DNA of 64,000 nt, from positions 1,612,001-1,676,000 of the forward strand of contig OX597815.1 of NCBI GenBank assembly GCA_951406725.2, given 5' to 3'. Source of the stretch: Octopus vulgaris (Eukaryota). The translations under genes and the position numbers were made by a program. Under the pieces are notes generated by a model, which saw nothing but the letters and a program-made list of their open reading frames with translations, ran no database searches and was not told the DNA's origin. Below, one piece after another: positions 4,088 to 35,307 of the stretch (the stretch's first letter is position 1; each line of letters begins with the position of its first letter).

Positions 4088-4118
<31 letters not shown>

Positions 4119-6294: not shown

Positions 6295-6379
<85 letters not shown>

Positions 6380-9699: not shown

Positions 9700-10440
9700 C
9701 GGTGAGCTGGCAGAATCGTTAGCACGCCAGGCGAAATGCTTCGCGGTATTTCGTCTGCAGCGACGTTCTGAGTTCAAATTCCGCTGAGGTCGACTTTGCC
9801 TTTCATCCTTTCGGGGTTGATTAAATAAGTACCAGTTATGCACTAGGGTCGATATAATTGACTTAATCCGTTTGTTTGTCCCCTCTGTGTTTAGCTCCTT
9901 GTGGGTAGTAAAGAAATAGGTATTTCGTCCATCATTATGTTTCTGAGTTCAAATTCCACTGAGGTCGACTTTGCCTTTCATCCTTTCGGGGTCGATTAAA
10001 TAAGTACCAGTTATACACTAGGGTCGATATAATCGACTTAATCCGTTTGTTTGTCCCCTCTGTGTTTAGCTCCTTGTGGGTAGTAAAGAAATAGGTATTT
10101 CGTCTGCAGCGACGTTCTGAGTTCAAATTCCGCCGAGGTCGACTTTGCCTTTCATCCTTTCGGGGTCGATTAAATAAGTACCAGTTATGCACTAGGGTCG
10201 ATATAATCGACTTAATCCGTTTGTTTGTCCCCTCTGTGTTTAGCTCCTTGTGGGTAGTAAAGAAATAGGTATTTCATCCATCATTATGTTTCTGAGTTCA
10301 AATTCCACTGAGGTCGACTTTGCCTTTCATCCTTTCGGGGTTGATAAAATAAATACCAGTTGAGCACTGGGGTCGATGTAATCGACTTAGCCCTTCCCCA
10401 AAATTGCTGGCCTTGTGCCAAATATTTGAAACCTATATTA
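9700..10440 (+). repeat. SINE family B with ~180-bp head-to-tail internal amplification (about 4 units)
   Basis: TTCTGAGTTCAAATTCC..GAGGTCGACTTTGCC..GTAAAGAAATAGG recurs at ~9766, 9941, 10115 and 10290, with units alternating between two variants. Confidence 0.85.
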
Positions 10441-11543
10441 TTTCTGAACATCAAACGCGACAATATTGGAAGAAGTCAGAAGGAACGTTTTTTGCTTTCA
10501 CATTTTTTTCTCCTTTCTTTTCTTTTCTGACTTCCTGATCTTCTTTCTTTCAAATTATGTTCGTTGCAATATCAGACAGTGTAGTTAATGTTTCCATCTG
10601 TAAAATTGTCAATACTCCGTACATTTAGTACAGACTCCTCCAAGAAATAATCTTGTTTGACTGAACACGACGACATTCAGGTCTGTGAATATTCTTGGCA
10701 CCGTGCGTTCTTTGGATTCTTATGTGGTGCGAAGGAATCGCCTGACCATACATATTCCAGTCAAGACCATCTCGGGTTTTTTTTTTATATATTTCTAGGA
10801 CTAAATAATCTGATGAACGGAATGGTGATGGGGAGTTGAGGGAAATTTGGCTGCTATTTTGAGAGAATTTAGTGGCTGCTAAGTAGAAGCTCTTTCTTTA
10901 GTTCCTTGAATCAAAATCGTTATAGTAAAGCGTCCACGTCTTGGGTGGTTTATTTCTGTGGCCACCTCGTCTGCTCGCCATTTGGAAGTTCGAATAAATA
11001 TTATAATTAGACTTTTTCATTTTGATCAATTTATTCGAATTCGTTATATAAAATATCGGTTTCCAATTTTGGCACAAGGCCAGCAAATTCGGGGGAGGGA
11101 GTCGATATAATCGACTCCAGTGCTTAACTGTCACTTATTTTATCAACCCTTAAACGTAAAGCCGGACGAAACGCCGCTGAACATTTTGTCCGGCATGTTG
11201 ACAATTATTTTGATGATGACAAGAGGAAGATAATGAAAGTGAAATAGTTCCAAGGGACGTAACAATGCCATTTGGCAGGGAAGAGTTATGCGTACATGTG
11301 CACCAAGTGATGAGTGTGGGTATGTATGTATTTAGTATATTATAGACACCATTGTGCGTCTTTCGTTTATTTACCCGTGTCATTGGACGACAGAGGGGCT
11401 GAGGCACACAGCCTTGAAGGGTTTTATTGTTGAACTAATAGACCCAGTACTCTTTTCCTTTTTTTTTTATCTTCTCCTTTTGCCAAACCGTTAAGTTAAG
11501 ACAAAGAAATCAACATCTGTTGTCAAGCGGTGGAGAGGGACAA

Positions 11544-11593
<50 letters not shown>

Positions 11594-11991
11594 GGTAAGA
11601 AGCTTGCTTCCCAACCACATGGTTCTGGGTTCGGTAACCATGTGTAGCACATTGGATGGATGTCTCCTACAATAGGTCTGGGATGACTAAAGCCTCGTGA
11701 GTGTTTTTTTTTTTTTTGTTGATGGAAACTGAAAGAAGCCTGTCGTGTGTGTGTGTGTATCTATATATATATAGGTTATGAGAGGTAATGGTGGTGTCAT
11801 TGAGACCCAAAGTTGTCAGGTAATGCTGAATAAATGCTGTAGACAGACCATCGTTAAGTTCAGGTTCGGTGATTTTGCGATTAAGGGGTTCAACTTTGGT
11901 CATATGTCTGTGTGTATATAAAATTTTTTTCGTAATGAGATAAAAAAAAAAACCAAGGCTGTGTAGATATTAGAACAGTTATAGATAGAAG

Positions 11992-12039
11992 GTCTTACAG
12001 CTGTTTCCAGGATATTTATTATATCCCTTCATCAGAGAC
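11992..12039 (-). ncRNA. Minimal type-I hammerhead ribozyme motif (Penelope-associated)
   Basis: Minus strand reads GTCT-CTGATGA-AG-GGATAT-AATAA-ATATCC-TG-GAAA-CAGCTG-TA-AGAC: stem I GTCT/AGAC, stem II GGATAT/ATATCC, palindromic stem III, UA cleavage site. Confidence 0.6.
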
Positions 12040-12329
12040 AGTGTGAGAGGATAGGGCAGAGGGTAAAGACCTTCAGTTACAAATAACCATGGGATTGCAC
12101 CTAGGAAGTTCCCCCTTCAAAGCACAAGTCCGGGCAAAGTTGTTTATGGAAGACCAGCTGTCACCCATGCATACCAGCCTACCCTCTCCACACCACCGAT
12201 GTTATCCAAGGAAAAGGCAAAGGGGCCGATACAGCTTGGCACCAATGACATCACATCTCATTTCTGCAGCTGAGTGATCTGAAGCAACATAAAATAAAGT
12301 GTCTTGCCTAAGAACACAACACACACCCT

Positions 12330-14180
12330 TCAGTCTATTTGGCTTGGTTTTCTACGGCTGGATGCCCTTCCTGATGCCAACCACTCTGAGAGTGTATTGG
12401 GTGCTTTTGTGTGCCACCAGCATGGGTGCCATTTGTGTGACATCCAGCTGCATTTACGTGCCAATTTGTGTGACACCTGTATACTGCCACGACTGAGTTT
12501 TGCTTGGTTTGGTGGGTCTTCTTCTCAAGCACAACATAATGCCAAAAGTCTTGGTCATTACCTCCATGAGACCCAACTCTTGAAAGGAACTCAGCCACTT
12601 TGCCTCCATCAGGCCCAACATTCAAAAGATGTTCTTTACATGCCACCAGCATGGGTGCACTTGGCTTGATGGGTCCTCACAAGCACAGCACATTGCCAAA
12701 GGTCTCGGTCATCAGTCATTGCTTTTGTGAGGCTCAAAGATCATACTTCACCACCTCATCCCATATCTTGCTGGGTCTACCTCTGTCACAGGTTCCCTCC
12801 ACAATTAGAGATCTGCACTTCTTCACACAGCTGTCCTCATCTATACACATCACATGACCATACCAGTGCAGTTGTCTCTCTTGCACACCACATCTGATTC
12901 CTTTTATGCCTAACTTGATGCTTTTATGCCTAACTTGATGCTTACACTCTGTTAAACATACATGTCCAGCAAAGCATACTGGCTTCATTTCTTTCAAGCT
13001 TATGCATGTCCTCGGCTGCCACAGCCCATGTTTCACTGCCATGCAGCATAGCTGTTTGCATGTGGGTATCATACAATCTGTCTTACACTCTGAGGGAGAG
13101 GCCCTTTGTTGCCAGCAGGGGTAGGAGCTCTCTGAACTTTGCCCAGACTAATCTTATTCTCACAGCTACACTCTCAGAGCATCCACCTCCATTGCTAACC
13201 TGGTCACCTGAATAATGGAAGCTATCTACTACCTCTAGCTTACCCACCTGGCAGTTGATGGAGTCTATTTTCTGCGCATTTTCAGTGTTTATTGTACGTG
13301 TGTACCTTCCACATACAAAAGCTGGTTTCCGTGTTAACCTTCCTCGGATATTGCTGCACCTTTTATGTGTCCAAAGCTTACACTGGGTGCATCTTATGGA
13401 GTTTCTGCCAACACCTTTTCTACAGATTGAACAGAACCATCTACTTGAAGGGATTTGTGAGCTGTCTGCCTTCCTACTTACTACAACTTTGGTTTTTGCT
13501 AGGTTAACGCTAAGGCCCTTTGATTCTAGACCTTGCTTCCATACCTGGAACTTCTCTAGTTTTGGTAGTGATTCATTTATAAGAGCAAGGTCATCAGCAT
13601 AGAGGAGCTCCCAGGGGCAGCTTGAATTCCTCTGTTATTGCCTGGAGAACTATGATGAACAAGTGGTGGGGTTTGCACTGATCCTTGGTGAACCTCTACT
13701 TCTATCTTGAATTCTTCGCAGCACTTATTGCCTACCCTCACCTTACTGGTAGCAACTCTGTACAAGGCTTATATGGCTCTCACCAACCACTCATATATCC
13801 CTAGTTTCTGCATTGACCACCAGATAAGGGATTGGGGGACTCTATCAAAAGGCTTTCTCCAAGTCAACAAGGGCTAAGTCGAGAGGTTTATCTTTGGCTA
13901 TGTATTTTTCCTGCAGCTGCCTTTGCCAGAAATATAACATCAATGGTGCTTCTGTCTGGCACAAAACCAAACTGCATCTCATCTAGGCTAACTCTCTCCC
14001 TAATTAGTTGGGCTACGATCTCTGTAACTTTCATCACCTGATCCAATGATTTTATACCCCTGTAGTTATTTCTATCTAAAGCATCACCCCTTATAGCAGT
14101 TGACTATGGTGTTACTACTCCAGTCATAGAGTATGACTCCTTCATGAACTACCTGATTTACAATACGGGTGCCTCAGCAA
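12330..14180 (-). mobile_element. Degenerate RTE-clade LINE (RT and 3' end)
   Basis: Minus-strand RT motifs VHQGSV and LLYADDLALI (~13580-13700), plus C-terminal WYGHVM...GRPSKIWDEVVK (ORF 12734..13072). Many stops. Confidence 0.85.
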
Positions 14181-15045
14181 ATTGCATCTGACCCATGCAA
14201 GCATGGATCAGATAAAGTGGATGTTAAATGACTGATGATGATGATGAGTGTAATAACACATCTGTTCATCCATAACAGATTCTGGCAGAATCTGTTATGA
14301 ATGTCTGATTGCTGTTTTTTTAAGTCAGTAGAGAACATCTCCCTTCAGACACCTTTCATTCATAAGATGTAATTAACCATTGGAGGAGTTTTGAAATACC
14401 AAGATGTTTTGACCTTATTTTGTGTCTCCTCAGAATGAGCTTTTGTTTATAAGAATCAGCCATCATGCATGCTCCTCCCTGTAAATTACTGGTTTGCCAG
14501 ACATCAGCAAATGTTTTGTTTGCTGATTTCTATAAGCAAGAGCTCACCAGTTCAGTAAGTAGGGGGGGGGGCAACTTTGACTAAGGAGACATACAATAAG
14601 GCCGAAACACTGCAGGATTTCAAAGCCCTTTTATATCAATGGATTGTGCCTGTTATGGATGCTTAAAAGGGAGGAGATGTTCTCTGATGAGGAAAAATCA
14701 CAGCAATCAACATGTTTGCACTGGAACCTGTCCAGACCTATTGAAAATAAATAGATGCATCATTGTTTGGAGTTTGGCTGTTGTGTACCCAAGTCAAAAT
14801 TGTTAGAAGTGAATATGATCATGTCTATTGGTTAATATGACAAGCACTATGAAGGTGGTTAGCTGGCAGAATTGTTAGCACACTGGGCAAAAAGCTTAGC
14901 AGCATTTTGTCTGTCTTCATGTTCTGAGTTCAAATTCAGTCGAGGTTGACTTGGCCTTTTGTCTTTTTGGGCTCGATATTATCAACTTACATCTTCCCTT
15001 TAAAATTACTGGCTGGTGCCAAAATTTGAAAACAGTATGACAATA

Positions 15046-16304
15046 TAGGGGTTGGACAAAATAATGGAAACACCTTAAAATTTCAAACAAGTTTATTTTA
15101 ATATGGGGTAGGACTATCTTTGGCAGTAATTACAGCTTTAATTCTATGAGGTATGGGCTCGTACAAAGTTTGAATTGTTTCTAAAGAAATTTTTGTCCAT
15201 TCTTCAGCTAAAACCGTCTCAAGTTCTTGTAGTGATGATGGCGGAGGATATCGACTCCTTACCTGTTTTTCTAAAATGTACCATAAATGTTCAATAATAT
15301 TGAGATTTGGGGACTGTGGTGGCCAGATAAGATGTTCAGCTTTAGCAGAATGTTCCTTTGTGCCATTCTGTAACAACTTTAGCTGTGTGAATTGGTGCAT
15401 TATCATCCTGAAAGATTGCGTTTCCCTCTGGAAGCAGTTTCGCAACCATAGGAGGAATTTGATCTGATAAAATTCTTGACTATTAATTATTCCATGAAAG
15501 GAAACCATTGGGCCAGTGGATTTTCAAGATATAGCCTCTCCAGATCATAGATCCTCCTCCATATTTAACAGTTGGAAGAAGGTAGTCTGGGTCAAATGCT
15601 TCTTTTGGCTGTCTCCACACATATACTCGGCTGGTGGTTGGAAACAAGGTAAAGGATGACTTGTCCAAGAAAATGACATTCTTCCACTGCTCTAGGGACC
15701 AATTCTGTAGGCTTTTGCTCCATTCTGAAAGCTTTGTGACGTTTGTATTTGAAAGTAGTGGTTTTCTGAATGCAGTCCTCCTGTGAAATCTGGCTTTGTG
15801 CAGCTCCCAGTGAACAGTTTTTATGGAAACTGGGTTTTCAAGGTGGTCATTAAGCTCTGCAGCAATTTTGGAAGCTGTACTTTTGTGATCCTTTCTAATA
15901 ATTTGCATAAGAGTGTGATGGTCCCTATCTGAAAGTTTTGGTTTTCTTCCGGAGTTTTGTTCCGACGAGGTTTTTCCCTCTTCCTCAAAGGCTGTCATTA
16001 CTTTCGAGACAGTACTTCTTGATACACCAAACATTTCGGCTGTTTCCGTTACGCTAGCGCCTGCCATACAAGCACCAACAATTTGACCTCTTTGAAAGTC
16101 TGATAGATCTGTCATTTTAATGAATTTTAATTACCTTTTTCTGATGATACCTGAAAAGAAACAGCAATTTTAGCCAAACATATTAAGCAACACTAATAAT
16201 AAATCAAAAAACATAAAAATAAACAAGCTTTTGATGGTTTTACAGATATTCCAAAATTATGATTCTATGATGCCAGGTGTTGACATCATTTTGTCCAACC
16301 CCTG
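15046..16304 (-). mobile_element. Full-length Tc1 (DD34E) transposon with frameshifted transposase
   Basis: TIRs (C/T)AGGGGTTGGACAAAAT..ACACCT at both ends, TA flanks at 15044-45 and 16305-06. ORF 15483..16115 (HTH, GRKPKLS, VIFLDKS, TVKYGGGS) and ORF 15098..15508 (WPPQSPNLNIIEHLW). Confidence 0.95.
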
Positions 16305-16659
16305 TATATTACACTTGTTCAGTCAATATTCATCATCATCATCATCATTTAACGTCTCATAACCATTTAACCATTATTTATAGATAAACCCTGTTTACTC
16401 ATATAATTCCTACTATTTTATACATGATTTTGAATTGCAAAAACTGGGGGGTGACTTAAACATGGGGCTAAGCTAAAACTGGGGATTGTGACGAATAGTT
16501 TTGTTTTGTTGTTTCTCTTTCTATTTTGATCTTTTTTTCTTTTCTATTTTATTCAGTGTCCAACGATGAAATATTTTCCTACCTGTCCTGCATTGTTGTA
16601 ACATTTACCTGACGTTGCTTTTCAAAGAGAATTTGATGAAGTAATTCTTTCTGGAAACT

Positions 16660-17053
16660 ATGCCTCGAGTTAAAAAAAAATCAGTCGAATATGGAAATCG
16701 CAAAAGAAGGAAACTAGCAGCTACAAAGCGCAGCACCCTCTACTGTTCATCGCCGGTGGATGAGCGACAGTTTGTGCAGATGCAGTCGATGGAGAATCAC
16801 TTTCAGTTAACAGTAACGCCTACACCGTCACCGCCGCCACCACCACCAGTACCACCACCACCTCCACTACAGCCATCACAACTTCAACCACCACGACCAA
16901 CACCACAGCCAACACCACCACCACGACCACCACCACCAACAACAACAACTACAACAACAATAAAAGCCCGTTATTCACCCGTGTTGTTGCCCAAGTCTTG
17001 TCCAGTTGAGGTTCAAACGGAAGAGAAATGTTTAGACCCCTTAAAAATGGAAG
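16660..17053 (+). CDS. Coding exon 1 of a 4-exon gene encoding a 1433-aa putative LRIF1-like chromatin protein
   Basis: ATG at 16660 with in-frame upstream TAA (16642-16644). Polypyrimidine tract and CAG acceptor at 16554-16556 (5'UTR part 16557-16659). Basic NLS-like N-terminus (RVKKK, RKRRK) and Pro/Thr-rich tract. Donor G|GTCAGT at 17053/17054, phase 1. Confidence 0.8.
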
Positions 17054-17800
17054 GTCAGTTACACAGCATCTCTCTCGTTTCCTTCACTTTTATTCATCAC
17101 TTATTTGAAATTCCTTTTTAAATTCTGTTTACCATTGTATGTATTTCTCTCTCTCTCTCTCTTTCTCTTGAGACAGCATTCACCCGGGGTGGGTTGAGCT
17201 GGTGGATCTACCAAGCCCTAGTGCGAACGATTCTCCTTTACGGCAGCGAGTCATGACCAATGAGGGTGGAAGATATTAAGTGACTAGAATCCTTCAAACA
17301 TTCCCCTCTCTTTCGTACCTTTGCTTTTTCTTTCTCCCTCCCTTTTCCATGTCTGCTTCCTGCCTGTCCCTCTCATTCTAATACTAATCATTTGACAGTG
17401 TGTACTGTCTTTAACCATGGCACCAGCATCAGAGGGGTGGTTGTGCCAGCGAGAACACTAAACAGCCCTCTTCATTGTAAGGGGCTCTTGTATCTTCTAC
17501 TCAGCATCTTAGGAATTATCATTTCGATCCCAAATACTTCTGTACAACAAACAGTTATTAAATCTGATAATATTGGTTTCAGATTTTGGCACAAGGCCGG
17601 CAATTTCAGAGAGGAATAAATCAATTACATTGACTCCCAATACGCAACTGATATTTACTTTATTGACCCTGAAAGAATGAAAGACTAAGTCGACCTCATT
17701 GGAATTTGAACTCTGAACATAAAGGTAGATGAAATACTGGCAAGCATTTTGTCTGGAATGCTAATGATTCTACCACTACAACAACAACAACAACAACAAT

Positions 17801-18237
17801 AAATGCCCTGATGCAGTACCAGGCAGTGGCTCTCATGGCTTCTGATCTTAGCTGATTGGAAGTGTTATCATGTACATTGTTTTGTCTTGGTATAAAAGAT
17901 GGGCTACAGCAAATATTCTGCTCAATACCACAGATTTGCTTGTCAGTTGTTTGACCGTAACCATTTGAGCATGTCCCTCGGTGACTGATGATATGTGCAT
18001 CTCTGATCACGAGCAGAAGTGGTGGGGGAGCATCATAGCCATGTGTTGAGAGGGATTCTTTGGAGTTTGAATAATTTATCCCTCGAAATCTGGGTGTTTC
18101 ATTCATCATCCTGAAACAAACCTTATTCAGGGACCTTTTGTGAGGGATTAGCTACTTGACCTGAAGAAAATTCTGACTGGACCCCACCTGCAAGTTCATG
18201 CGTTGTTTATCTTGATATGGGATCACCATGTCATGCC
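17801..18237 (+). mobile_element. Partial copy of the (TAA)n-associated ~560-bp non-coding retroposon (family D)
   Basis: Matches 55329-55887. Another partial, inverted copy at 7609-7967. Confidence 0.75.
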
Positions 18238-19089
18238 TGGTGTACTCTTATCTAATGGGTATAGTCATCATCATCATCATCATTTAACGTCCGTTGTCCA
18301 TGCTGGCATGGGTTGGACGGTTTGACCAGGGCTGGTAAGCGAAGGGGCAGCACTAGACTCCAGTCTGTTTTGGCATGGTTTCTAATGCCAACCACTTTGA
18401 GAGTGTAATGGGTGCTTTTACACGTCACTGGCACAGGGGCCACTTGCATGACGCCAATATTTACCACAACTATGATTTTGCTCAGCTTTATAGATTTTCT
18501 CAATCATGGCATAATGCCAGAGGTCTCGGTCATCATCTTTGCCTCCATGAGGCCCAGCACTTGAAAGGTGTTTTGCACATGCCACCAGCATCAGCCACTT
18601 TGCCTCCACGAGGCCCAGCACTTGAAAGGTGCTTTTTATGTGGCACAGGTGCCAGTTATGTGACACCAGCATCAGCCATGACCACGATTTCACTTGGCTT
18701 GACCAGTCTTCTCAAGCACAGCATATTACCAAGGGTTTCAGTCACTAGTCATTCCTTCCATGAGGCCAAATGTTCAAAGATCATGCTTCACCACCTTGTC
18801 CCACGTCTTCCTGGGCCTAATTCTACCACAAATTCCCTCCACAGAGATCAGCACTTCTTTACACAGCTGTCCTGGGCTTTGTTTGTTTGTACCTTAGCAT
18901 CACTTTGATGGTGTGTGCTGCTCTCTCAATAATAATAATAATAAGAAGAAGAAGAAGAAGAAGAAGAATGAAAACATGTTAGACATGACCTGGACCAATC
19001 TTTGGTCGAAACATATCTAAGTTACCATTCTAACTGCCATTGACTGCTAACCTCTCATACAAAAATATACTCACCTCTACCTTCAGAAC

Positions 19090-19420
19090 CATCATAAATA
19101 TTAACTCAGAGGTTACAATCTGTCATGTTATAAACCTATGTCATGTGGACATGAACTGGTCTTCCAGGATCTGTAGTTTCATGCATGGAGTACCTCAAAG
19201 ATCATGCATGGAGTACCTCTCACCCATTCTCTTCTCAACTTATACTCACATGGCACCATCACACAAGGTATATGGACAACTGCATATGCAGATGGCACCA
19301 GATTTACATCCTCTCATCTTTACACGCTGCTACACAACTGTTTCAACTTTATATAACCAACCATCACACACACAGAAGATACTAGAAGTCAAGAGTTACC
19401 TGCTACTCCTCCACAATACT
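19090..19420 (+). pseudogene. Highly decayed Penelope-like RT remnant
   Basis: ORF 19185..19385 MEYLK...WHHHTRYMDNCICRW resembles the PLE RT pattern ME.LE...W.RYVDD.F..W. Confidence 0.4.
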
Positions 19421-20981
19421 CACAACACATCATCATCATTTATCGTCATCCATTTTCCATGCTGGCATGGGTTGGATAGTTTGACAGGAATTGGCAAGCC
19501 AGAGAGCAGGTTCCATTGCCTGTTTTGGTATGGTCTGTATGACCTTCCTGACACCAACCATTTTACAGAGTGTACTGGGTGCTTTTTACGTGGAACCATC
19601 ATCAGTGCTTTTTATGTGGCACCATCACGAGTACTTTCTGCATGGTCCCCACACAGAGGCCCCAAGGTAAACAACATACCTAGGCCAGTGTTCACAGTTG
19701 CTACATGGAAACAGCATCAGTGAGAGTGTTATACAAACAATACTTTAGGTCCATCATGGACTCTGCCAGTGCTACCTGGACCCCCTAATCTGCCTGCAGT
19801 AAACTACAAACAACTCAAAAAGAGGAACCTTACACATCGTAACCATTTGTACAGACTGCAATAAAATCAAACTGCTATAAACAAATGTGTGTTTGTTTGT
19901 TTGCGTCCTGATGGCACTGTTTAAGGAATGGTGTTTTTATGTCTCCTGTAAACAATATGTTCTGTAGCTTGGATGCCTTTGTGATTTTTTTTGTGAAAAC
20001 TGCTGGAATTAGAAACAAAATACCTTACTTGGAAAAAGCAGCTTGCCAACAGGAAAGTCTTCTCTGACTGTGAAACCATGCTTCAGTAAGTCTCACCAAA
20101 GCCATAAACCCAACCAACAATGAAAAAACTGGACTAGAAACGCTGATGATTATTTTATATAAGATTGACTAAAGTTACTGGGGCTGTGGATAAGAAAGGT
20201 TTATTAAAAATCAATCATCATCGTTTAACGTCCGCTTTCCATGCTAGCATGGGTTGGACGGTTCGACTGGGGTCTGGGAAGCCAGGAGGCTGCACCAGGC
20301 CCAGTCTGATCTGGCAGTGTTTCTACAGCTGGATGCTCTTCCTAACGCCAACCACTCCATGAGTGTAGTGGGTGCTTTTTATGTGCCACTGGCACAGGTG
20401 CCAGGGGAGGCTGGCAACAGCCACGATCGGTTGGTGCTTTTTACGTGCCACCGGCACAGAGGCCAGTTGGGGCTGCGCTGGCAACGGCCCCGTTTGGATG
20501 GTTCTTTTATGTGCCACTGGCACTGGTATCGCAGCTACAATTTCCATTGATTTTTGATCGATTTCGATTTCCCTTGCCTCAACAGGTCTTCACAAGCAGA
20601 GTTTTGTGTCCCAAGAAGGAAAGGTATGCATAAGTGGACTGGCTACATCCCAGGTAGAGGCCACGGGTTATGGTCTCATTTGTCCTGCCGGGTCTTCTCA
20701 TGCACAGCATACTTCCAAAGGTCTCGGACACTAGTCATTGCCTCGGTGAGACCTAATGTTCAAAGGTCGTGCGTTTAATATCTGCTTTGGGTTGGACAGT
20801 TTCACTGGAGCTGGCAAGGGTGGAGGGCTGCACCAGGCTCCTTTTGTCTGTTTTGGAATGGTTTCTATGGTTGGATGCCCTTTGCAGTACCAACCACTTT
20901 ATAGAGTGGACTCTGTGTTTTTAATATCTAATAATATTGATTAGCATTGCTCATTCTCTCTTTTTCCTTTATTTCCAACAG

Positions 20982-21083
20982 ATTCAAAGACAGAATTGAA
21001 ATATTCTACCTTCCCAGAAGCTCTCAAAGACGAGTCACTGAGCGAGGTGCAGAGATCTGAGTTACGTCGTAAATATTTCTCAG
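20982..21083 (+). CDS. Coding exon 2 (102 nt, phase 1-1): DSKTELKYSTFPEALKDESLSEVQRSELRRKYFS
   Basis: Acceptor TTTTTCCTTTATTTCCAACAG ends at 20981. Donor CAG|GTACAT. Open in the frame required by exon 1. Confidence 0.75.
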
Positions 21084-21107
21084 GTACATAACATTTTATT
21101 GGATGTT

Positions 21108-21375
21108 TTTACCATTCTATATCTGCTACATGTTATTAATCAATGTCTTTACCATTCTATATCTGCTACATGTTATTAGCAATGTTTTTAACCATTCTAT
21201 ATCTGCTACATGTTATTGGCAAAGTCTTTACCATTCTATATCTGCTACATGTTATTAACAATGTCTACCATTCTATATCTGCTACATGTTATTAGCAATG
21301 TCTTTACCATTCTATATCTGCTACATGTTATTAGCAATGTTGTTACCATTCTGTATCTGCTACATGTTATTAGCA
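21108..21375. repeat. ~39-bp minisatellite, about 7 copies (ACCATTCTATATCTGCTACATGTTATTAGCAATGTCTTT)
   Basis: Unit starts at 21111, 21151, 21192, 21230, 21267, 21306 and 21345. Confidence 0.95.
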
Positions 21376-22107
21376 GCCACACAATTGTCAATAACCACTT
21401 TAGCCCTTTATCATTTAAACTGACCATATCTGGCCTAAATATTCTATTTGTTTTATGTTGAAACTAGCCAGATCCATCCTCTCACACTTACCCTACAATG
21501 TCATTTTTAAAATAAACAGTCACATCGTTGAAATCTGAAAGCTATGAGATAATCCAGGATTAATTCATGACAATGTGAATCAATAAGCATTACATTTGGC
21601 AGAGTAATCCGGATGCTCAAAGTCAAACTTTTACACTCCCCCCCTCTCTCTCTCCCACCCCCTGCTACTTTCTGCAGTACCTTATTTCTAACCTGTGTTG
21701 GTGATTGAATGTATTGTGCCTTCAATAAAATGTCCTGAGCTTATTCATTCCATGTCTTGCTGTGGTCAGCTTTGCCTTTCAACCTTCAAAGGTCAATAAA
21801 ATAAGGGGCTTGTCTAGTTCTAGTGTGAATTTAATTGAACTCTCTCCATCTACACAAAATTCCTCACTTTGTGCCAATATTAAAACTAATTATCATTTCC
21901 ATTCATGACCTTCCACCCTCCCAAAGACAGTTTCTAACATCTAACCCTATTGCACTGAGTCCTTGCTTTTGCAACAATAGCATGAACGGAATCTCTACCA
22001 GATTCCCAGTAAAGTGGTAATGGACAACACACAGAAAATTATCATTGTCGTTGTTTAACGTCCGCTTTCCATGCTAGAATGGGTTGGACAAAATAAAAGC
22101 TATCGCC

Positions 22108-22170
22108 TGAGTCGGCCAGGAGTTGAACCCGGATCGACTGCTTGGAAGGCAATCCTGCTAACCGTTACAC
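22108..22170 (-). pseudogene. 5'-truncated tRNA-Gly(TCC) pseudogene
   Basis: Minus strand GTGTAACGGTTAGCAGGATTGCCTTCCAAGCAGTCGATCCGGGTTCAACTCCTGGCCGACTCA resembles metazoan tRNA-Gly(TCC). Anticodon at 22144-22146. The 5' acceptor strand is missing; a TTTT run follows downstream. Confidence 0.75.
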
Positions 22171-22569
22171 GGTTGCCTTCCAAGCAGTCGATCCGAGTAC
22201 CAAAACACAGACAACTGATCCACGTTGCAGCAGCAGCTTTGGAACCAAGTGTGTTTTATGGTTTCTTGTTAATGGTGTCTCTCACCAACGCTGTTGTTTG
22301 CTTTTGTTTTTAATGAAAAAACAAATGATTTTGCAATGAAACAAGTGTGTGATGAACCCAGCCCTTCATCTTGTAAACATGCAGGGCCATGACTTTTTGC
22401 AGTTGAGAGAATTATTGATGATGTTTATTCTTGGGACGAAGAGTTCACCCTTACACAGACAATGAGAGTGATTTGGACAATCCCACTGGTGAAAGTAATG
22501 AGGAAAGTAGCGATTCGGATGGACAAATACAGGAGTTGAGGAGAGATTGGCCTTTTATTCAGTTGTCCT

Positions 22570-22800
22570 GTTTACTCTTTTTACTCTTTTACTTGTTTCA
22601 GTCATTTGACTGTGGCCATGCTGAAGCACCACCTTTAGTCGAGCAAATCGACCCCAGGATTTATTCTTTGTAAGCCTAGTACTTATTCTATCGGTCTCTT
22701 TTGCTGAACTGCTAAGTTATGGGGACGTAAACACACGAGCATCCGTTGTCAAGCGATGTTGGGGCGACAAACACAGACACACAAACATATACACACACAG

Positions 22801-22856
<56 letters not shown>

Positions 22857-23017
22857 GACGGGCTTCTTTCAGTTTCTGTCTACCAAATCTACTCACAAGA
22901 CTTTGGTCAGCCCGAGGCTATAGTAGAAGACACTTGCCCAAGGTGCCATGCAGTGGGACTGAACCCGGAACCATGTGGTTGGTAAACAAACTACTTACCA
23001 CACAACCACTCCTGCTC
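22570..23017 (-). mobile_element. tRNA-derived SINE family A, full length
   Basis: Head GGAGTGG(C/T)TGTGTGGTAAG..GGTTCAGTCCC, central (TA)n and tail GGTGCTCCAGCATGGCC..GAAACAAGTAAAAGAG. Many copies in the window. Confidence 0.85.
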
Positions 23018-23285
23018 CTGAATGGTTTTTTTCTTGTGATTCTGTCCATTAGTTTTGCTTGCTATTGTTACTCTTGGGCTGTGTATGCAACTATTTATTA
23101 TTTTGTTTTTGCTCAGGAGCCCAGATGAAGGGTAAAGCTAGAAACAGGGGCCCAGAGCTGAGAGGATTAACATGTCACTCTCTCACTATTATTTCCTATG
23201 AGTGGAATTCAACTCTGCTAGTCATCAGGACACCAGTTTTACCGCACCAGCACCTACCATCTTGGGGTAACTACTTACAACCAGG

Positions 23286-23517
23286 AAAGGCGGTGAGCTG
23301 GCAGAAACGTTAGCACACCGGGCGAAATGCGTAGCTGTATTTCGTCTGTCGTTACGTTCTGAGTTCAAATTCCGCCGAGGTCGACTTTGCCTTTCATCCT
23401 TTTGGGGTCGATTAATTAAGTACCAGTTACGCACTGGGGTCAATGTAATCGACTTTATCCCTTTGCCTGTCCTTGTTTGTCCCCTCTGTGTTTAGCCCCT
23501 TGTGGGCAGTAAAGAAA
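23286..23517 (+). mobile_element. SINE family B with 18-bp target-site duplication
   Basis: TAACTACTTACAACCAGG at 23268-23285 and 23518-23535. Head GGCGGTGAGCTGGCAGAAACGTTAGC..GAGTTCAAATTCC. Confidence 0.9.
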
Positions 23518-23837
23518 TAACTACTTACAACCAGGTGAACTTGGCTGCTGATATTGTCCTTTCTTTTAACTGACCCTTCTCAGTAAAAATTAATTACAAT
23601 GCTGGACTAATTAATCACTGCTACTTTGTTACATCCCTTTAAGTTCTTAGTTCAAATCTTGCTTGGTTAAACTTGATTGCTAAAAAATTGCCAGGTACAA
23701 TTTTGCCAAGACCCCCCCCACACACACACACACACGTTCACGTTTCCTGTGTACCAAAGTTAGAAATCAATCAATCAGTAAAAATTAATGTTGTAACTAA
23801 TCAAGGTGGCTGATTGCTTTGTGTCCGTTTCTTCCAG

Positions 23838-23997
23838 ATTTACTCTCCAGGTGTGTTATTACTGCTGATAAAGCTGCTGCTGCTGTGATGGCTGTCAGGT
23901 GTGATTCTGTGTCTAAAAAACCCACAGCCGTTCGCAAACCAAGGGTACCAAGGAAACCAAAAGTCGAGAAAGTAAACAAACAGAAAGTTTATGCAGC
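23838..23997 (+). CDS. Coding exon 3 (160 nt, phase 1-2): DLLSRCVITADKAAAAVMAVRCDSVSKKPTAVRKPRVPRKPKVEKVNKQKVYA
   Basis: Acceptor GTCCGTTTCTTCCAG ends at 23837. Canonical donor GC|GTAAGT. Same frame as ORF 23819..24001. Confidence 0.8.
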
Positions 23998-25295
23998 GTA
24001 AGTCTTTATGAATTGCTTGTATTTGAGGGTGGATTGCCCAGGGTGGGTTGTGTCCTTATGATTATTATATCGTTACCCGTTCATGTTTGCAGAGGAAACA
24101 CCAGTGGTACTTTAGAATTGGTTTTTACAGCCAGATGCCCTTCCTAATACCAACCACTTTACAGGGAGTGTTGGGCCCTCCTTTCATGCCACCAGCACTA
24201 GTGAGGTTGTCATGCAGCAGCTTGCACGACTTTCCAACAAAGGTGGCTTTATGTTAGGAAATGAGGGGTCGTAGTGTGATAGAAGGGGCCAGAGCAGAAC
24301 AGGTTTCTTACAGGGGAGAGGCCAAATGGTTACTCATACTTTAGAAGGGAAGGTGGTGGGGTGACAGATTAGGGTGGAGTGGGGGAAGAGATGCAAAAAG
24401 TAGGGATGAAGCATCTGTGTGGAGGAGTGAACGGAGGCAGAAGAACTGGGGTTGTGGATGGGTTGAGGTTGCAAGAGTGTCTGAGAGGAGTGGGAGATGG
24501 GGGAATGGGTGACGGAGGTGAATGTAATGAATGTTGAGGGAAGAGTCTGTGATAACTGTAAACAATTTCTAGTATATATATACAAGTATGGAAATCAGAT
24601 GCTGAATGATGTTGGTGATTCCACCATATTATCTAGGGTGTGTTTGTATGGTATATATATATACAAAATATGGGGGTTTAGTTCACAGGTGATCTAAACG
24701 GCTAGGTACGCTAGGTAAGTGCTGTAACGGATTACTAGGGCTCCAAGGTTATAGCTGAGATGGTAGTTATGGAGCCATTGCAGATTTCGGATGCAGCGGT
24801 GTATATCATCATCATCGTTTAACGTCCATTTTCCATGCTGGCCTGGGTTGGACAGTTTGACCGGGGTCTGGGAAGCCAGGAGGCTGCACCAGGCTCCAGT
24901 CTGATCTGGCAGTGTTTATACAGCTGGATGCCCTTCCTACACTTTGAGAGTGTAGTGGGTGCTCTTTATGTGCCACCGGCACAGAGGCTAGATGAGTTGG
25001 AATCGACCACGATCGGATAATGCTTTTTACGTGCTACCAGAATGGGGGGGGGTCACAACTACAACTTCCATTTGATTTGATATTGATATTGATGTTGATG
25101 TACTTGACCCAGTAGGTCTCCTCAAGCACGGCATGTCGCCCTACGATCCAAGATACTTTTGACTGGGCTGGTTATGCGACACTGGTGTAGGTTACAGCTG
25201 TGAACTCACTTTATTTGCCGAATTTTCTCAGTCACAGCATACCTCCAGAGGTCTCGGCTTTTTGTCATTGCCTCTGTGAGGCCCAACGTACAAAG

Positions 25296-25342
<47 letters not shown>

Positions 25343-25579
25343 TAAACAAATAAGAAACTGGAGAAACAAATTTGGTTTGTTCATCAACTTATGGATAATA
25401 TAATGTTGAATTATTTTATTCATTTTACAAATGAGAACATCAAAAGCATACAAAAATATTACGAAAATCAATAGATAAGATAATAATAATAATACAAATA
25501 CAGATTTTAGAAGTCATAGTATAAATTAATGAAATTCTAAATATTACTTCTTACAGCTGTTTCGAGAAAAAGGAGGCAG

Positions 25580-26109
25580 TCAGAATTCTGGATAATCTTT
25601 TATTGGTGCTTTTGTTTATTTATGAACTCGTCAAGACAAAATCAAAATGGTAAAAACAGGTCATTTCATTGTTCATTTTTATGAACAGGATGTTGTTTTT
25701 TGTTTTTTTTTGAAGAGGAAAAATTTGTTTTTGGGGAAAAAGAGAAGCAAAGTGCTTTCAAGGCAATCAGGAAAGAGGAGAAAAAATAACAGTAATAAAA
25801 GATGGGAAGAGGATAGAGAGAGAGAGAGAGGTTTCTTTTCAATTTGGTGTGGTCAGTTCCTTGAAATTTCATTGTTTTTTCTATTTCTTTTCCCATTGTA
25901 TACTTATCAAGATATTTGTAAATAAACACATTTTCTCACAAGGGCTGGTGACCTTTCAGAGGTGTCAGTTTCCTAAAATTTTAGGAAACTGAAAGGTCAC
26001 CAGCCCTTGTGAGAAAATGTGTTTATTTACAAATATCTTGATAAGTATACAATGGAAAAAGAAAAGAAAAAGAATACTTTGAATTGACCACACCAGATTG
26101 AAAAGAACC

Positions 26110-26158
<49 letters not shown>

Positions 26159-26415
26159 CTTTCCCCATCCTTTATTATTATTATTTTTTCTCCTCTTTCC
26201 TGATTGTCTTGAAAACTCTCTATCTGTTCCCCCTCCCCCACTTTGCCCCTCTCTCTCCAAAAAAATTAAAATATTCTCCTTTTCTGAACAAAACAAAAAA
26301 ACCCATCTGATTCATATAAATGAACAATCAGACATTCTGTTTTTACCATTTTGATTTTGTCTTGACGCGTTTGGTAAACAAATAAAAGCGCTAATAAAGA
26401 ATTATCCAACATCTG
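25580..26415. repeat. ~830-bp fold-back palindrome, probably Penelope-derived
   Basis: Centre CAGTTTCCTAAAA|TTTTAGGAAACTG at 25978/25979. Arms pair outward, e.g. CGTCAAGACAAAATCAAAATGGTAAAAACAG with its reverse complement at ~26338-26368. A GAAACAGCTGTAAG half-motif lies on the minus strand at ~25550-25563. Confidence 0.85.
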
Positions 26416-27313
26416 TACACCACTTCAAACACTCTGTACATATTATACATATATATATATATATAACCGTATTATCTAATGTCTAATGAGCGTGATCGTT
26501 ACCAACGTCACCTTACTGGCACCTGTGCCAGTGGCATGTGTAAAAAGATTCGAGTGAGGTCGTTGCCAGTACCATCTGATTGGCCCTCGTGGTGGTGGCA
26601 CGTAAAAGCACCCATTACACTCACGGAGTGGTTGGCATTAGGAAGGGCATCCAGCTGTAGAAACTCTGCCAAATCAAGATTGGAGCCTGGTGCAGCCATC
26701 TGGTTTGCCAGTCCTCAGTCAAAATCGTCCAACCCGTGCTAGCATGGAAAGTGGATGTTAAACAATGATGATGATGTACATAGGTGCAGCCATAGCTGTG
26801 TGGTTAAAGACTTTGCTTCACAACCACATGGCTTTGGGTTCAATCCTATTGCATGGTACCTTTGGTTAGTATCTTCTGCTATAACCTCTGATTGACCAAT
26901 GCCTCATGAATGAAATCGCATGTGTATATTTGGTTTTTTTGTTTATGCCATTTGGGCAGAGGTAACATTAGTTCAAATCATACAACTCTGCTTTTCTACA
27001 GATGAAGATTTTATTTATCCTTTATTTGTAAACCAGTAAAAGCTAGTGTTAGGGTTAGTGTGTCTCATTGTAGGATGCTGCTTCAGAAAGTCTTGTCTAA
27101 GGCAGCCAGTATGGAAAGATGATAGTGATGTGCTATACTTCCTTGTTGAAGCTGTAGGGTGTGATTTGAGGATGCTGTTGCTACTAATGGCTTCCTCGTT
27201 AATGTCTAGAGTTGTTTGGTGGCATTTCTTTCAGTTAAACTTTTGTTTGTGTTATTTATCATTAATGTGTTGTTATTGTGACTTATTTTGTTATTTTATC
27301 ATTTCTTTTCCAG

Positions 27314-30300
27314 AGTTTCAAAAGTGCCGCATTCTGAGACTGCGGTTTCAAAGGCGCCACCAGCACCGAACCAAACTGCAACCAGCAAAGTGACAACGGC
27401 TAACTCCAAAGCTGTTGGCAGTACCCCTCCGGCTAGCAATACCCAGAAAGCATATGCTCTTTATGTTGGGGGCCAGTTGAAGTACATTCTTCCATACAAT
27501 GGTCTTTTAGCAGCCACCAATCCCAACCAACCCGAAGGTGAGATGAAAAAGTTGATTTGTCGAGGAGTGAATGGCAAAACAGAAATAGCTCTGGCAAAAC
27601 CGACAATTGTGTGTGATAACGAAAAGAAGAAGATTGTGTTTGTTGTGCAGAAAAAGTCCCCTGACTCACCGAACCAAATTGTCACTACGAAAACAACAAC
27701 AACAACTGAAACTAAAGCCACCACAAAATCTTCGAATCTTCTTACGTACAATTCTTTTCTAAACCATGGCATCTCGGACAACATGTTGAAACTGTTGCTG
27801 CCAAGTTTTGTTCCTTCTGAAGTCTCCACAACAGCAACTACGACCACGACTACAACAAAGTCAACCACCACACCAATACTTCCAGCTCCCACTGTTGGTT
27901 CCAAGGTAACCTCAGCCAAAAGCCAGTCTGATATGAATGGTTCCCAAACTGGACCAGCTTCAACAGACAGACCAAAGGATGTTCCTGTAACCACTTGTGT
28001 GAATTCTACAGGGAATAATCAGAACGTGCGCACTCCTGGTACTGCACTCACCACAACTACGACATCTACTAAAACACTGACCACTGCCGTAGTAACATCA
28101 ACAACAACACCAGCAGCAGCAACACCACCAACATCAACAGCAGCAACACCGCCAGCACCGGCAGCAGTAGCAATAACTCCAGCAGCAGCAGCAACAGTAG
28201 ATGGAACAGCAGAGGATTCTGGGTCAGTCCACCCTGTGAAACTGTTTTCACGAGATTCTGCCAGAAAACTTTGTCCTCCGACTTCTTCCTCTCTATCATC
28301 GGCGCCTGTTCCAACTATTTTGGATGCCAGTGAAGTACAGAATAGTTCTGGCAAATCTCTGTTGAGATTTTCTTCTGTCTTGAATGAAAACAAACACAAA
28401 ACACAGTCCCATAGCAAACAAACAAACGAAACGGCAGCAGCAGCAGCAGAGAGGACGAACCTAGCACCAACAGAGAGTCATCCTGATAACATTGTTCACC
28501 AGGACAAAACTGAGAATAGTGGGAAAGCCATCGGTAATAGTGACACAAATTTTGTTAAAAATCTCTCACAGCAATCTGAATCTGTAATGGAAGAATGCCA
28601 TTCCGATGGTAAAGAAGTATCGCAAGAAAATGCTGATGACGCTGATGACGATGGCATGTTTGGATTGAAGATCTCTTCTGTTTTCTCTTTGGCTGAAGAA
28701 CAACTGCGATCCAGTGAGGATGATGTTACAGCTTCACAACTTGGAGAAAATTCTGAATTTGTTAAATCTTCTTCAGATTCCGGTTTCTTCCATGTAGAAC
28801 AACCTCAAATAGATGGCTTTGCTGAAAATGACAACCTCCCAAATGAATCTAAATTCCAAAGAGTTTTAATCAATTCTCCGCAGTCAACGAGTTCCTTGCT
28901 AAGTCCACGGACCGTTGTCGTCAGCATGAACAACGAGGCGTTCACCTCTCCTGTGCAGCTGACAAATGCAAACGAGGAAGTCAGTGTGGACATCAGCATA
29001 GATTCGGCCAGTCACACGAAACACCCGAGCACTGACCATGAGAAAACTCTAACAACAAAATCACCACCAAATGTCGAACAAGATTTGGATAACAACTTCA
29101 ACATGACCGATTCTCAGCTGAACAATTCGCAGAAAGAAAATGCTTCACCAAAGAATTCTAGCAGTTCTGATAAAAGTGAACAGGATCCGAAGTACATTTC
29201 TGTTGACATACGACGGCGTAATGGTCAGACAAAGGTAACAGCTGTCACTAATCCTAATCTGAAGAAAGAGTCTGCTAAATCGATTGCCAGCACCTTGGAA
29301 AGTGTGTCTTCAGTGACTTCTTTAGGTTCTGTCATACCTCAAGGAAATAGTTCCACTCGTCTTGCAGATGAGCTGCAGTGTGCTGCCCATTCGCTACCAA
29401 TGGGTAAATATGTTTTCATTCCATTGTCTGATAAAACAGTGGCCATTCCTTCACAAGGTGGCAAAGCCAGCAGATCTGCCTATATTTTTGAAAAGAGTTT
29501 CAACCAGAATTCTATGCAAGTTAAAATGCCAAAATCTTTTATTGTAAATACTAAGGATGGTCCACCTCCAACAGTCGTATCAAATACTAATAATGGATCC
29601 CAAATAGTTTTCCAAACTAACAATGCTTCTAAGTCTTTGAATGATGTTATTACTACTCCATCTGCAGATCCACTTCCAAGCTCTACAAAAGAAACGGTAC
29701 CAACTCTGGAAGCCCCACCTATAATTACTGGTAAAAGAATACGTAGACCAAAAAAACATACTGGTTTTGAAGAAGATATTGATTTCATTCCTCCAGTTAG
29801 GAAATATCGGAAGAAATCCAAATCTGTTCTGAAAGAGAAAAAAAGCGGAATGGTTGCCAGTGATAATCCGAAGAAGATGAAAAGTCATGTTCCAACTCCC
29901 GAGAATAACAATTGTCTGTATTATATGAAGGAAGGGAGTAATAAAATCCAACTTTTTGATTCTAAATCGGAATTAGCTACCGTATTACGAGCGACCGGTA
30001 CAGCTCTTGAAATTTCCAAAGTCGATCCAGTAAATGGCCATCGCTTGTTACCATCTTGCTCAACACCTGTTGTACCAAATGTAACTATGGTAACACCGAA
30101 AGTGGCATCTTCTGTTGGAACTGTAGTTGATCAATCATATCAGAGTTGTAATTCTTCAGGTCTGCGAATTGATAATGTTCTTTCTCTGCAACCTAATACG
30201 GTTCATATCAAATCTGAACCCATAACTTCTGGTTATGGCGATGAACCAGTGAAACATCCTCCTCATGTATCCATCCTTCCATTAAACCCTCTCATCACTT

Positions 30301-30959
30301 TACCTCCTACTAGTGTACCAGATTCCTTAAATCTTGTTCAGAATATCAAAAAGGAACCGGTAAAATATGGTTACGAAGGGGACATCAATCCTGATTCATC
30401 TGACTCGTTATTAGCTCCCATCAACCAACAGACTTCCCTGTCATCAATCAAAGAAGAGAAATTTGGGCTTTGCCCAGAGAATGTTGCTTTTAAAAACTTA
30501 GCCTCCACACGAAAAGACGTTGGTCATTTAAGTGATTCTTCTAAATTATTCAAGATGGACAAGTTTACCTTGTCAGGGTCTGGTAAAAAATTGAACTGTA
30601 AAAAGAAAACAGTTGGTAAAAAGGCAGCTGTCAAGATAACAGGTTTTCCTTTAGAAACTCAAACATCATCCTCATCGTCTATGACTGACGACCTTTCATA
30701 CAGCACTCCATCTCCTTCCAACCTTTCTCCTCTGCTCCCTGCCTCCCCCTCCACCTCCTCATCTTCTTGTTATTCTTCACATGTCAGCTCTTCAAAACAC
30801 AACAGTCTAGAACTTCCAAGTGCCTCCACGTCATCGGTGACTCTCTCTGGGGAGACACCCCAGGAGGAACGGATTCGCCGCTTGAGGGAGATTCTGCGGG
30901 AGAAAGAACACAGCCTTGAGTTGATTCGACAGAATCTTGCTGTATCATCTTCTCTTTAA
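27314..30959 (+). CDS. Large terminal coding exon (3646 nt); Ser/Thr-rich disordered region ending in an LRIF1-like coiled coil
   Basis: 1223-codon ORF. Acceptor TTTCTTTTCCAG ends at 27313, and phase 2 matches exon 3 (GC+A=Ala). Stop TAA at 30957-30959. C-terminus GETPQEERIRRLREILREKEHSLELIRQNL. Confidence 0.9.
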
Positions 30960-33590: not shown

Positions 33591-34305
33591 AAACAAAACA
33601 CACTATGTTTGTGCAAGCGATGATGTTATTACTGGATTTGCTTTTAACTCCAGAATTATTCTATCCACCCACGCAGAGCAGACGGGTGTATACGAACCTT
33701 GGCAATGCCATTTCAGTCTGTCTCAGTGAACAGTGAGATATTGAATTGACCGAGTTTGCTCAAAGACTAACTAGGTAGTCGGTGCTATGAGTTTATGTGA
33801 ATCAGACAAATAGGAAGAATGAATTAGTAACCTGTTTCTTTGTTGCAGTCCTCCGTACCCACCCTCAACCCTTTGCTGTAGTCGTAGGAAGGACATCTCG
33901 AAGTCTGACTGCTGTTGATTTCTTTTGGCAGAGACAGACAGACAGACAGAAAAGAATCTATCGACTCCGCCACATGACTAATACTTTATCTATTGACTCC
34001 AACATGATGACCTTGGTTGAATTTGAACTCAGCGCATGGAGAACTGGAATGATTACCACAAAGTAATCTAATGACTGCCATCATATACCTGTGTGTGTGT
34101 GTGTGTGTGTGTCTTTATATATTTTTGTGTGTTTGAGTGATGTGTCTATACACAGGTGTACCTGTATAGATTCATATATGAATAGACACACACACACACA
34201 CTCGTAGCCATCAACTCTTACCAAGCAAAGTAATTCTTCTGCATGTGTTTCCATGCAAAATTGGAAATAAGGGACATGTCATATTCAAGGGTTGGACGGT
34301 TCGAT

Positions 34306-34654
34306 TAGGGCTGGTAAGCTGAGGGGCTGCACCAGACTCTATTCTAGGGCTGGTAAGCTGAGGGGCTGCATCAGACTCTAGTCTAGGGCTGGTCAGCTGA
34401 GGGGCTGCATCAGACTCTAGTCTAGGGCTGGTCAGCTGAGGGGCTACACCAGACTCTAGTCTAGGGCTGGTCAGCTGAGGGGCTGCATCAGACTCTAGTC
34501 TAGGGCTGGTCAGCTGAGGGGCTACACCAGACTCTAGTCTAGGGCTGGTCAGCTGAGGGGCTACACCAGACTCTAGTCTAGGGCTGGTCAGCTGAGGGGC
34601 TACACCAGACTCTAGTCTAGGGCTGGTCAGCTGAGGAGCTGCATCAGACTCCAG
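34306..34654. repeat. 39-bp minisatellite x9 (TAGGGCTGGTCAGCTGAGGGGCTRCAYCAGACTCTAGTC) derived from an RTE-tailed SINE
   Basis: Exact 39-bp period from 34306 to 34618. An inverted copy of the unit follows at ~34678-34715. Confidence 0.95.
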
Positions 34655-35307
34655 CTGTAGAAACCATGCTTAATCAGACTGGAGTCTGGTGCAGCCCCTC
34701 AGCTGACCAGCCCTGGTCAAACCGTCCAGCCCATGCCAGCATGGACAACGGATGTTAAATGATGATGATGGCACTTGTCTACAGCTGTCACACAGTACCA
34801 TGGCAAAGAGGCACAGGCACATACATACACACATGATGGGGCTTCTTACATTTTTCAGCTATCAGATATTGTCACCTATGCAATGGGACTGAACCCAAAA
34901 CCCAGCAGTTAGGAAGCAAGCTTCTTAACCACACAGTCATGTGTGTGTGTGTGTGTGTCTGGTATGTGTATGTAGTATTATATACAAGTGTTATGTGTTT
35001 ATACATGACCTAATAATTATGGACAATACTGTGTACATATGTATGTCTACCTTGTGATTGTATGGAAGAGTGTGTGTGTTTGTAATTTTCTACAATGAGA
35101 CGACATTGCTATATCAACTTTCCATTAAATGCATTTATGAAATAATAAAGACCCTCAATCATTCTCTTCTATGTCCATATCCAGAAATGTGTGTAATTTC
35201 TGTTCTTTTTTTTTTCATTTTTATTTTTTCTTCATTCCAATGTTGTGGTGAATGGTTTCTTTTAACCAGGAAGTTAGTCTGAAGATGTAGCTGACGTCTG
35301 GCAGCTG

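Follow-up and report, generated by a model that had tools for sequence, protein, structure and literature searches.

The window analysed here, a stretch of 64,000 nucleotides from the Octopus vulgaris contig OX597815.1, contains an expressed four-exon gene for a protein of 1433 amino acids (aa), and comparison of sequences marks the last 30 residues of this protein as specifically LRIF1-like. In vertebrates, LRIF1 contacts SMCHD1 through its C-terminal coil and HP1 through a PxVxL-type motif (PMC10307901), and it is described as the principal factor that loads SMCHD1 onto chromatin (PMC13434421, PMC4628070). We tentatively favour the idea, without quite expecting it to hold, that the octopus protein may be a disordered scaffold that recruits SMCHD1 by its terminal helix and that is tied by two FAM-like motifs to ATF7IP-SETDB1 and not to HP1. 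If the version with HP1 is counted as well, an SMCHD1 adaptor of one kind or the other seems fairly probable.

The gene is real and expressed in octopus. The exons lie in phase on the plus strand, all introns are of the GT..AG type, and joining the exons gives the complete product with a single stop, which is letter-identical to the O. vulgaris model CAI9716859.1 (Table 1). All three exon junctions are spanned by single contigs of runs X3 and X7 and the last two by one contig of run X1; among the matches listed, run X13 gave fragments alone. These contigs come from four of the 24 listed sequencing runs, which are presumed to be RNA; none is recorded as such, yet the introns are skipped. The contig ends lie 0-3 bases from the predicted exon ends, with an equal shift on both sides of each intron. 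The structure proposed in a sequence-only reading of this DNA, four phase-compatible exons for 1433 aa, is thus confirmed, and the labels that it foresaw from annotation pipelines are indeed in use: 'hypothetical predicted protein' for the O. vulgaris model, FLO11-like for the O. sinensis orthologue and mucin-5AC for that of O. bimaculoides. Since the contigs hold extra 5' letters that do not match at the first coding exon, there is probably an upstream non-coding exon; no placement for it was found within positions 1-16700 of the window among the matches listed. An annotated isoform of 1304 aa (CAI9716860.1, P0025) begins only at a methionine close to where the first coding exon ends, so that the basic and proline-rich N-terminal region is missing from it.

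The sequence-only reading had noticed an LRIF1 pattern in the terminal segment GETPQEERIRRLREILREKEHSLELIRQNL, and this resemblance is supported for the terminal helix. First, the last 59 aa match positions 714-743 of the 745 positions of the Pfam LRIF1 profile (PF15741; E 6.5e-6, 25.5 bits), and LRIF1 is the top family for the coil with E values from 6.5e-6 to 7.9e-6, the next family being at E 0.04 or worse. Second, a phmmer search with a 42-residue query against 1,835,955,588 proteins returned six matches at E<=0.001: the O. sinensis orthologue, the homologues P0009 and P0010, a fluke protein and two LRIF1 records, i. e. Callorhinchus milii LRIF1 (E 2.1e-4) and the LRIF1-like entry UniRef100_UPI00398E8C0E (E 4.2e-4), which we take to be from a cartilaginous fish since it is 49% identical to Callorhinchus LRIF1. 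The score of the fluke protein (P0011, E 3.6e-5) is a sum over ten tandem repeats, and this match was discarded; beyond octopus, the named genuine matches are the two LRIF1 records only, with no other named family. Third, the reciprocal search with the Callorhinchus coil against the whole 2.8-Gb octopus genome ranks this gene first (E 0.004). Moreover, hhalign pairs the coil with LRIF1 (92%, E 5.5e-7), and 18 of 29 residues are identical to Callorhinchus LRIF1 (62% over 29 aa), at the same C-terminal position that the coil has in LRIF1. Finally, a profile made from fish sequences only gives the gene 31 bits as compared to at most 6.1 for unrelated proteins among 10,502 targets, SMCHD1 coiled coils included. 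Fourteen coil positions, charged ones included, are invariant over six octopus-type and fish coils, and this suggests a kept partner surface. That the octopus and the LRIF1 coils share ancestry is what we infer with the highest confidence.

A second feature, the FAM-like motifs LKISSVFSL and LRIDNVLSL, was missed by the earlier reading, as was a second octopus gene with a tail of the same kind (see below). In ZMYM2, a V and an L three apart are needed for the ATF7IP-binding FAM (PMC7706265), and in the FAM of MGA, IVNVTSLAA, the residues I, V and L were those mutated (PMC12303078). Both octopus motifs fit the key residues I-x-x-V-x-x-L (PMC12303078, PMC7706265), and LKISSVFSL fits I-x-x-V-x-S-L of the MGA motif (PMC12303078). 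None of 2000 shuffles reached a count of two copies, and the pattern did not occur in eight control proteins (8,854 residues), two fish LRIF1s included. Neither LRIF1 nor SMCHD1 is mentioned in the main text of the two FAM papers (PMC7706265, PMC12303078).

The proteins that such a scaffold would join are encoded in the octopus genome. SMCHD1, whose presence the sequence-only reading had asked to have confirmed, was found with collinear exons from the GHKL ATPase to the hinge: three exons score above the Pfam SMCHD1_S5 cut-off, one exon matches human SMCHD1 in 6MW7 (E 2.2e-19), and a tblastn search with the sea-urchin protein as query places pieces in collinear order between ATPase and hinge. 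The hinge was placed by tblastn and is not listed in the Pfam SMC_hinge search. SMCHD1 records also exist in sea urchin, tick and clam, i. e. the protein is ordinary in invertebrates. In addition, the genome contains HP1-type chromoshadow domains at two loci, an ATF7IP-type FNIII domain split over exons on C1, and, on C7, a Tudor domain of the SETDB1 type.

From these observations, a mechanism of decreasing certainty can be proposed. On the SMCHD1 side, LRIF1 binding needs the hinge region, and the flanking coiled coils are favoured by the authors (PMC4628070); elsewhere, the LRIF1-binding part is given as the hinge (PMC9226161). Loss of LRIF1 frees most SMCHD1 from chromatin (PMC13434421). 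Second in confidence after the shared ancestry, the terminal coil, like its vertebrate counterpart, would bind octopus SMCHD1 at the hinge or at the coiled coils that flank it. Third, the FAM-like motifs may bind ATF7IP's FNIII domain and thereby the SETDB1 H3K9 methyltransferase complex. Last, and with the lowest confidence, one molecule could in this way load SMCHD1 where trimethylated H3K9 (H3K9me3) is being written. At a D4Z4 reporter in human cells, SETDB1, ATF7IP and LRIF1 are a shared genetic requirement, without TRIM28 (10.1101/2025.02.19.639175). The coil and both FAM-like motifs are conserved against a background identity of about 37%.

Several observations weigh against this proposal. 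The best Pfam score of the coil, obtained on the 59-aa piece, lies below the LRIF1 cut-off of 27 bits, it drops as longer upstream sequence is added, and neither the whole 1214-aa last exon nor the homologue P0009 matches the Pfam LRIF1 profile; fish LRIF1s score 364-376 bits as whole proteins. The full profile, a stricter first look at the genome than the search with the Callorhinchus coil, ranks the gene second (E 0.9) behind a low-complexity stretch at C5:94.4 Mb, which we rejected as a T/V repeat on the strand translated, opposite to the matched strand. In the ESM Atlas, LRIF1 clusters come out top, but their values of 0.80 and 0.77 are at the level of a lead. The homology is limited to about 30 of the 1433 residues: hhalign and BLAST aligned nothing of the octopus protein with LRIF1 outside the coil, and five other fish LRIF1 blocks gave scores below 0 bits (the four N-terminal and middle ones) or no match at all (the HP1-motif block) with four octopus-type proteins, these block profiles being built from two sequences and thus of low sensitivity. 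Searches, which have little power with a query of 40 residues, turned up no relative among bivalves, gastropods, annelids, echinoderms or arthropods, nor any outside octopus-type and vertebrate records, and there is hence no chain of intermediates from cephalopods to fishes. The FAM pattern is short and was written after the motifs had been seen, and the two fish LRIF1s have no such motif.

Two further points of the sequence-only reading belong here. The segment CRGVNGKTEIAL at 27558-27593 is placed as described, but between the supposed echo of the LRIF1 N-terminus and the N-terminal block of LRIF1 no similarity could be measured; an ESM Atlas search on the N-terminal block returned PHF21B (0.78) and ARID2 (0.77) clusters and no LRIF1. 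None of the three outcomes that this reading had named as refuting it was obtained, namely a peptide scoring no better against LRIF1 than against generic coiled coils, a lack of conservation in other molluscs, or a genome without SMCHD1, although the coil was seen conserved in Octopus and in probably cephalopod records and in no other molluscs. Word-based homologue searches with 227 and 115 candidates yielded two Octopus proteins only, a PDB sequence search of the coil yielded four weak unrelated matches (E>=1.3) and no LRIF1 chain, and none of 599 stretches in a Joint Genome Institute (JGI) metagenome scan had the coil. The single hit among 516 in a second JGI scan was rejected as an unrelated bacterial open reading frame (ORF) within an efflux operon. 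An LPxG..IP..P likeness of aa 913-932 to an LRIF1 block, with E 8-10 in two BLAST runs and no match to the block profile, was set aside as unproven. Because it fails both the whole-protein Pfam score and the N-terminal block tests, we do not file the protein as a member of LRIF1; judging from the coil, it is likely LRIF1-like in its action on the SMCHD1 side.

Could a charged amphipathic helix have come to resemble the end of LRIF1 by chance or convergence? The shortness of the match, its score below the cut-off, the genome-wide E value of the family, a similar word in an unrelated bacterial protein and the choice of the region for its LRIF1 resemblance would all fit with this, but we regard it as quite improbable. 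In a library-wide search, E values of 2e-4 and 4e-4 were reached with two LRIF1s and with no other named family, the match is reciprocally best, and the helix has the terminal position it has in LRIF1. Moreover, the score of 82 against three fish coils was reached by none of 3000 full shuffles (maximum 46) and by none of another 3000 in which the hydrophobic pattern was preserved (maximum 63).

A somewhat stronger competitor, though still rather unlikely, treats the coil as a small module, homologous or shuffled, and the protein not as an LRIF1 orthologue but as an ATF7IP/SUMO-linked chromatin hub whose helix dimerises or binds a partner other than SMCHD1. This would account for the lack of alignment outside the coil and for its mobility, as it occurs twice in two fish LRIF1 genes and also in the otherwise dissimilar second octopus gene. 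The genes are also laid out differently: here the coil ends a 3.6-kb exon, whereas in human LRIF1 exons 3-4 come after an exon 2 that is alternatively spliced (PMC10307901). The 14 invariant positions, in contrast, point to a partner surface that has been kept, and the known partner SMCHD1 is present in the genome. The two coil copies of the fish genes lie at aa 663-693 and 810-835 of P0012 and at aa 839-868 and 980-1007 of P0013; a shorter Callorhinchus record (P0019) stops after the first copy.

The sequence-only reading had cast the protein as an adaptor between SMCHD1 and HP1. Only the SMCHD1 side of this proposal is supported, through the coil; no conserved strict PxVxL motif is present and the fish HP1-motif block is unmatched. 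The reading as a divergent orthologue of LRIF1, which would link SMCHD1 to HP1 and so to existing H3K9me3 by a non-canonical HP1 motif such as YISVDIRR, can draw on all of the coil evidence and on the two chromoshadow loci. In each of three octopus-type proteins, YI[ST]VDI.R, a conserved stretch, is the only place that fits the spacing psi-x-V/I-x-psi-x-R, and the LRIF1 motif is likewise the one match in two fish proteins. However, this pattern is post hoc and has at least one chance match in 15-18% of shuffles, both strict PxVxL matches in the protein are conserved at 0 of 5 positions, and AlphaFold2 models the YISVDIRR stretch as a low-confidence hairpin, like others in the protein, so that it may be one strand of a hairpin instead of an HP1 motif. 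In a variant of this idea, the HP1 arm is located in the second octopus gene, which holds CYLVVPKL. We consider a bridge to HP1 unlikely: with FAM-like motifs that have been conserved and no evident HP1 motif, the chromatin side is likelier to be reached via ATF7IP-SETDB1.

The second gene, CAI9721570.1 (P0040), lies at the only other place found by the coil search of the genome (C4:105.44 Mb, E 1.08). It encodes the FAM-like motif LKIDSIYSL, which was no part of the search that found the gene, and has a terminal DRIKRLKEILKEQQRDLEIAR, a RIKRLKEILKE coil. It shares with the main gene a FAM-like motif, the terminal coil and a large open frame and is otherwise dissimilar. The gene is conserved in three Octopus species and matches no Pfam family, LRIF1 included. 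Its coil is weaker, with 19 bits on the fish profile and a genome-wide E of 1-5 that is not significant alone; apart from itself, however, each of the two octopus coils finds the other as its best match in the genome. It also contains RPRGRPP, which is presumably AT-hook-like. It is possible, albeit doubtful, that the two genes form an octopus adaptor family that joins an LRIF1-type coil to FAM motifs and thereby couples SMCHD1 to SETDB1.

With respect to the architecture of the protein, the alignment with the homologue P0014, probably from another cephalopod (37% identity overall), reveals 16 conserved islands strung along the sequence, with the two FAM-like motifs among those best preserved (Table 1). 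The first coding exon encodes a basic start (aa 1-26) resembling a nuclear localization signal (NLS), 23 of 26 residues of which are identical in P0014, and then a proline-rich tract. The block at aa 900-948 matched no family in a Pfam search. Two psi-K-x-E-P..GY motifs follow, which we take to fit the SUMO acceptor consensus and thus to be candidate sites. Six residues, AVSSSL, separate GETPQEERIRRLREILREKEHSLELIRQNL from the stop. The protein is probably nuclear and predicted to be largely disordered, in agreement with the sequence-only reading: AlphaFold2 gave the homologue P0009 a mean predicted local distance difference test (pLDDT) score of 30 with the terminal helix as the sole confident part, a value that is weak as evidence of disorder given an alignment depth of 9. 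The terminal coil by itself is modelled as one helix (mean pLDDT 89.5).

Table 1. Features of the octopus gene in the window and of the two genes discussed with it
Feature	Position	Strand	Details
First coding exon	16555..17053	+	coding part 16660-17053; ATG at 16660; in-frame stop upstream at 16642-16644
Coding exon 2	20982..21083	+	102 nt; exon joining and transcript contigs
Coding exon 3	23838..23997	+	160 nt; exon joining and transcript contigs
Last coding exon	27314..30959	+	3646 nt; transcript contigs extend to 31212
Hydrophobic hairpin-like block, aa 259-335	27432..27662	+	contains CRGVNGKTEIAL; 25/29 and 37/43 identical to P0014
FAM-like motif 1, LKISSVFSL, aa 670-678	28665..28691	+	9/9 identical in P0014; candidate ATF7IP FNIII site
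YISVDIRR, aa 846-853	29193..29216	+	sole loose fit to LRIF1 HP1-motif spacing; 6/8 conserved
Conserved block, aa 900-948	29355..29501	+	37/49 identical to P0014
Basic NLS-like block, aa 1011-1046	29688..29795	+	31/36 identical to P0014
FAM-like motif 2, LRIDNVLSL, aa 1169-1177	30162..30188	+	7/9 identical in P0014
Two psi-K-x-E-P..GY motifs, aa 1184-1200 and 1230-1239	30207..30374	+	conserved
Terminal LRIF1-type helix/coil, aa 1398-1427	30849..30938	+	GETPQEERIRRLREILREKEHSLELIRQNL; 25/30 identical to P0014; candidate SMCHD1-binding segment
SMCHD1	G000:C3:8327345-8404885		exons in collinear order, GHKL ATPase through hinge and the coil after it
CAI9721570.1 (P0040)	G000:C4:105439277-105442075 = L038:3277-6075	+	932 aa, one open frame; coil search of genome

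Elsewhere in the window, a broken Tc1/mariner-type transposase (HTH_Tnp_Tc3_2 and DDE_3, in two frames) lies just upstream of the first coding exon at 15098-16130 on the minus strand, preceded at 12734-13634, on the same strand, by a degenerate piece of a retroelement without long terminal repeats, consisting of the end of a reverse transcriptase and then a PHD-like finger. By eye, a tandem repeat of about 40 nt directly follows exon 2 (21096-21375), a short tRNA-like self-complementary stretch lies in intron 2 (22105-22190), and a long, imperfect inverted repeat resembling a miniature inverted-repeat transposable element or a foldback element seems to lie in intron 3 (25290-26480, about 25.3-25.95 against 25.96-26.45 kb). 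ARAGORN called no tRNA genes in the window, and no neighbouring host gene was identified among the 11 window ORFs scanned. A Pfam BH3 match at 34211-34669 (minus strand) was rejected: it is a 33-nt (11-codon) minisatellite open in one frame, and no single stretch passes, the score being summed over repeats.

LRIF1 has been studied in mammals and zebrafish (PMC9226161), and a literature search outside the subscription journals and the databases of orthologues turned up no paper on LRIF1 in an invertebrate. An invertebrate carrier of the coil would make the module older than the vertebrates. If the proposed octopus adaptors are real, the SMCHD1-loading coil would go back to the ancestor of the bilaterians, with the wiring to HP1, a reader, in vertebrates as just one of its forms. 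The 14 positions that are invariant between octopus and fish provide a list for mapping the LRIF1-SMCHD1 interface, which is relevant to FSHD2 (facioscapulohumeral muscular dystrophy type 2). If the FAM motifs work, they would provide a direct link from a writer to SMCHD1 that has been seen in human cells only as a shared genetic requirement. SMCHD1 and SETDB1 regulate the mammalian protocadherin clusters, and the octopus clusters are expanded (review PMC7811963). It is therefore tempting to speculate that the gene, if it acts as proposed, is a candidate for the control of the separately expanded clusters of cephalopods. The protein is also a testable handle on cephalopod heterochromatin control.

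Two known systems can be compared with the octopus protein. The nearest members of vertebrate LRIF1/HBiX1 (Callorhinchus milii XP_042198196.1 and UniRef100_UPI00398E8C0E) likewise have the C-terminal helix E-[RK]-I-[RK]-R-L-[RK]-E-I-L-[RK]-E-K-E-x-x-L-E-x-I-R, fish LRIF1s likewise have a long and apparently disordered body with psi-K-x-E-P motifs, and SMCHD1 and HP1 are both present in the octopus genome, as they are alongside vertebrate LRIF1. The octopus protein differs in its length (1433 aa versus 669-1042 for the fish LRIF1s) and in having one coil and two FAM-like motifs, whereas the fish LRIF1 genes have two coils and no FAM-like motif. The FAM-bearing partners of ATF7IP (ZMYM2, ZMYM4, MGA, ZFP518A and MBD1; PMC7706265, PMC12303078) have zinc finger, MBD, T-box or bHLH domains, none of which a Pfam scan detected in the octopus protein. 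However, these partners likewise carry I-x-x-V-x-S-L in a long low-complexity region, and ZMYM2 has two FAM copies, as does the octopus protein.

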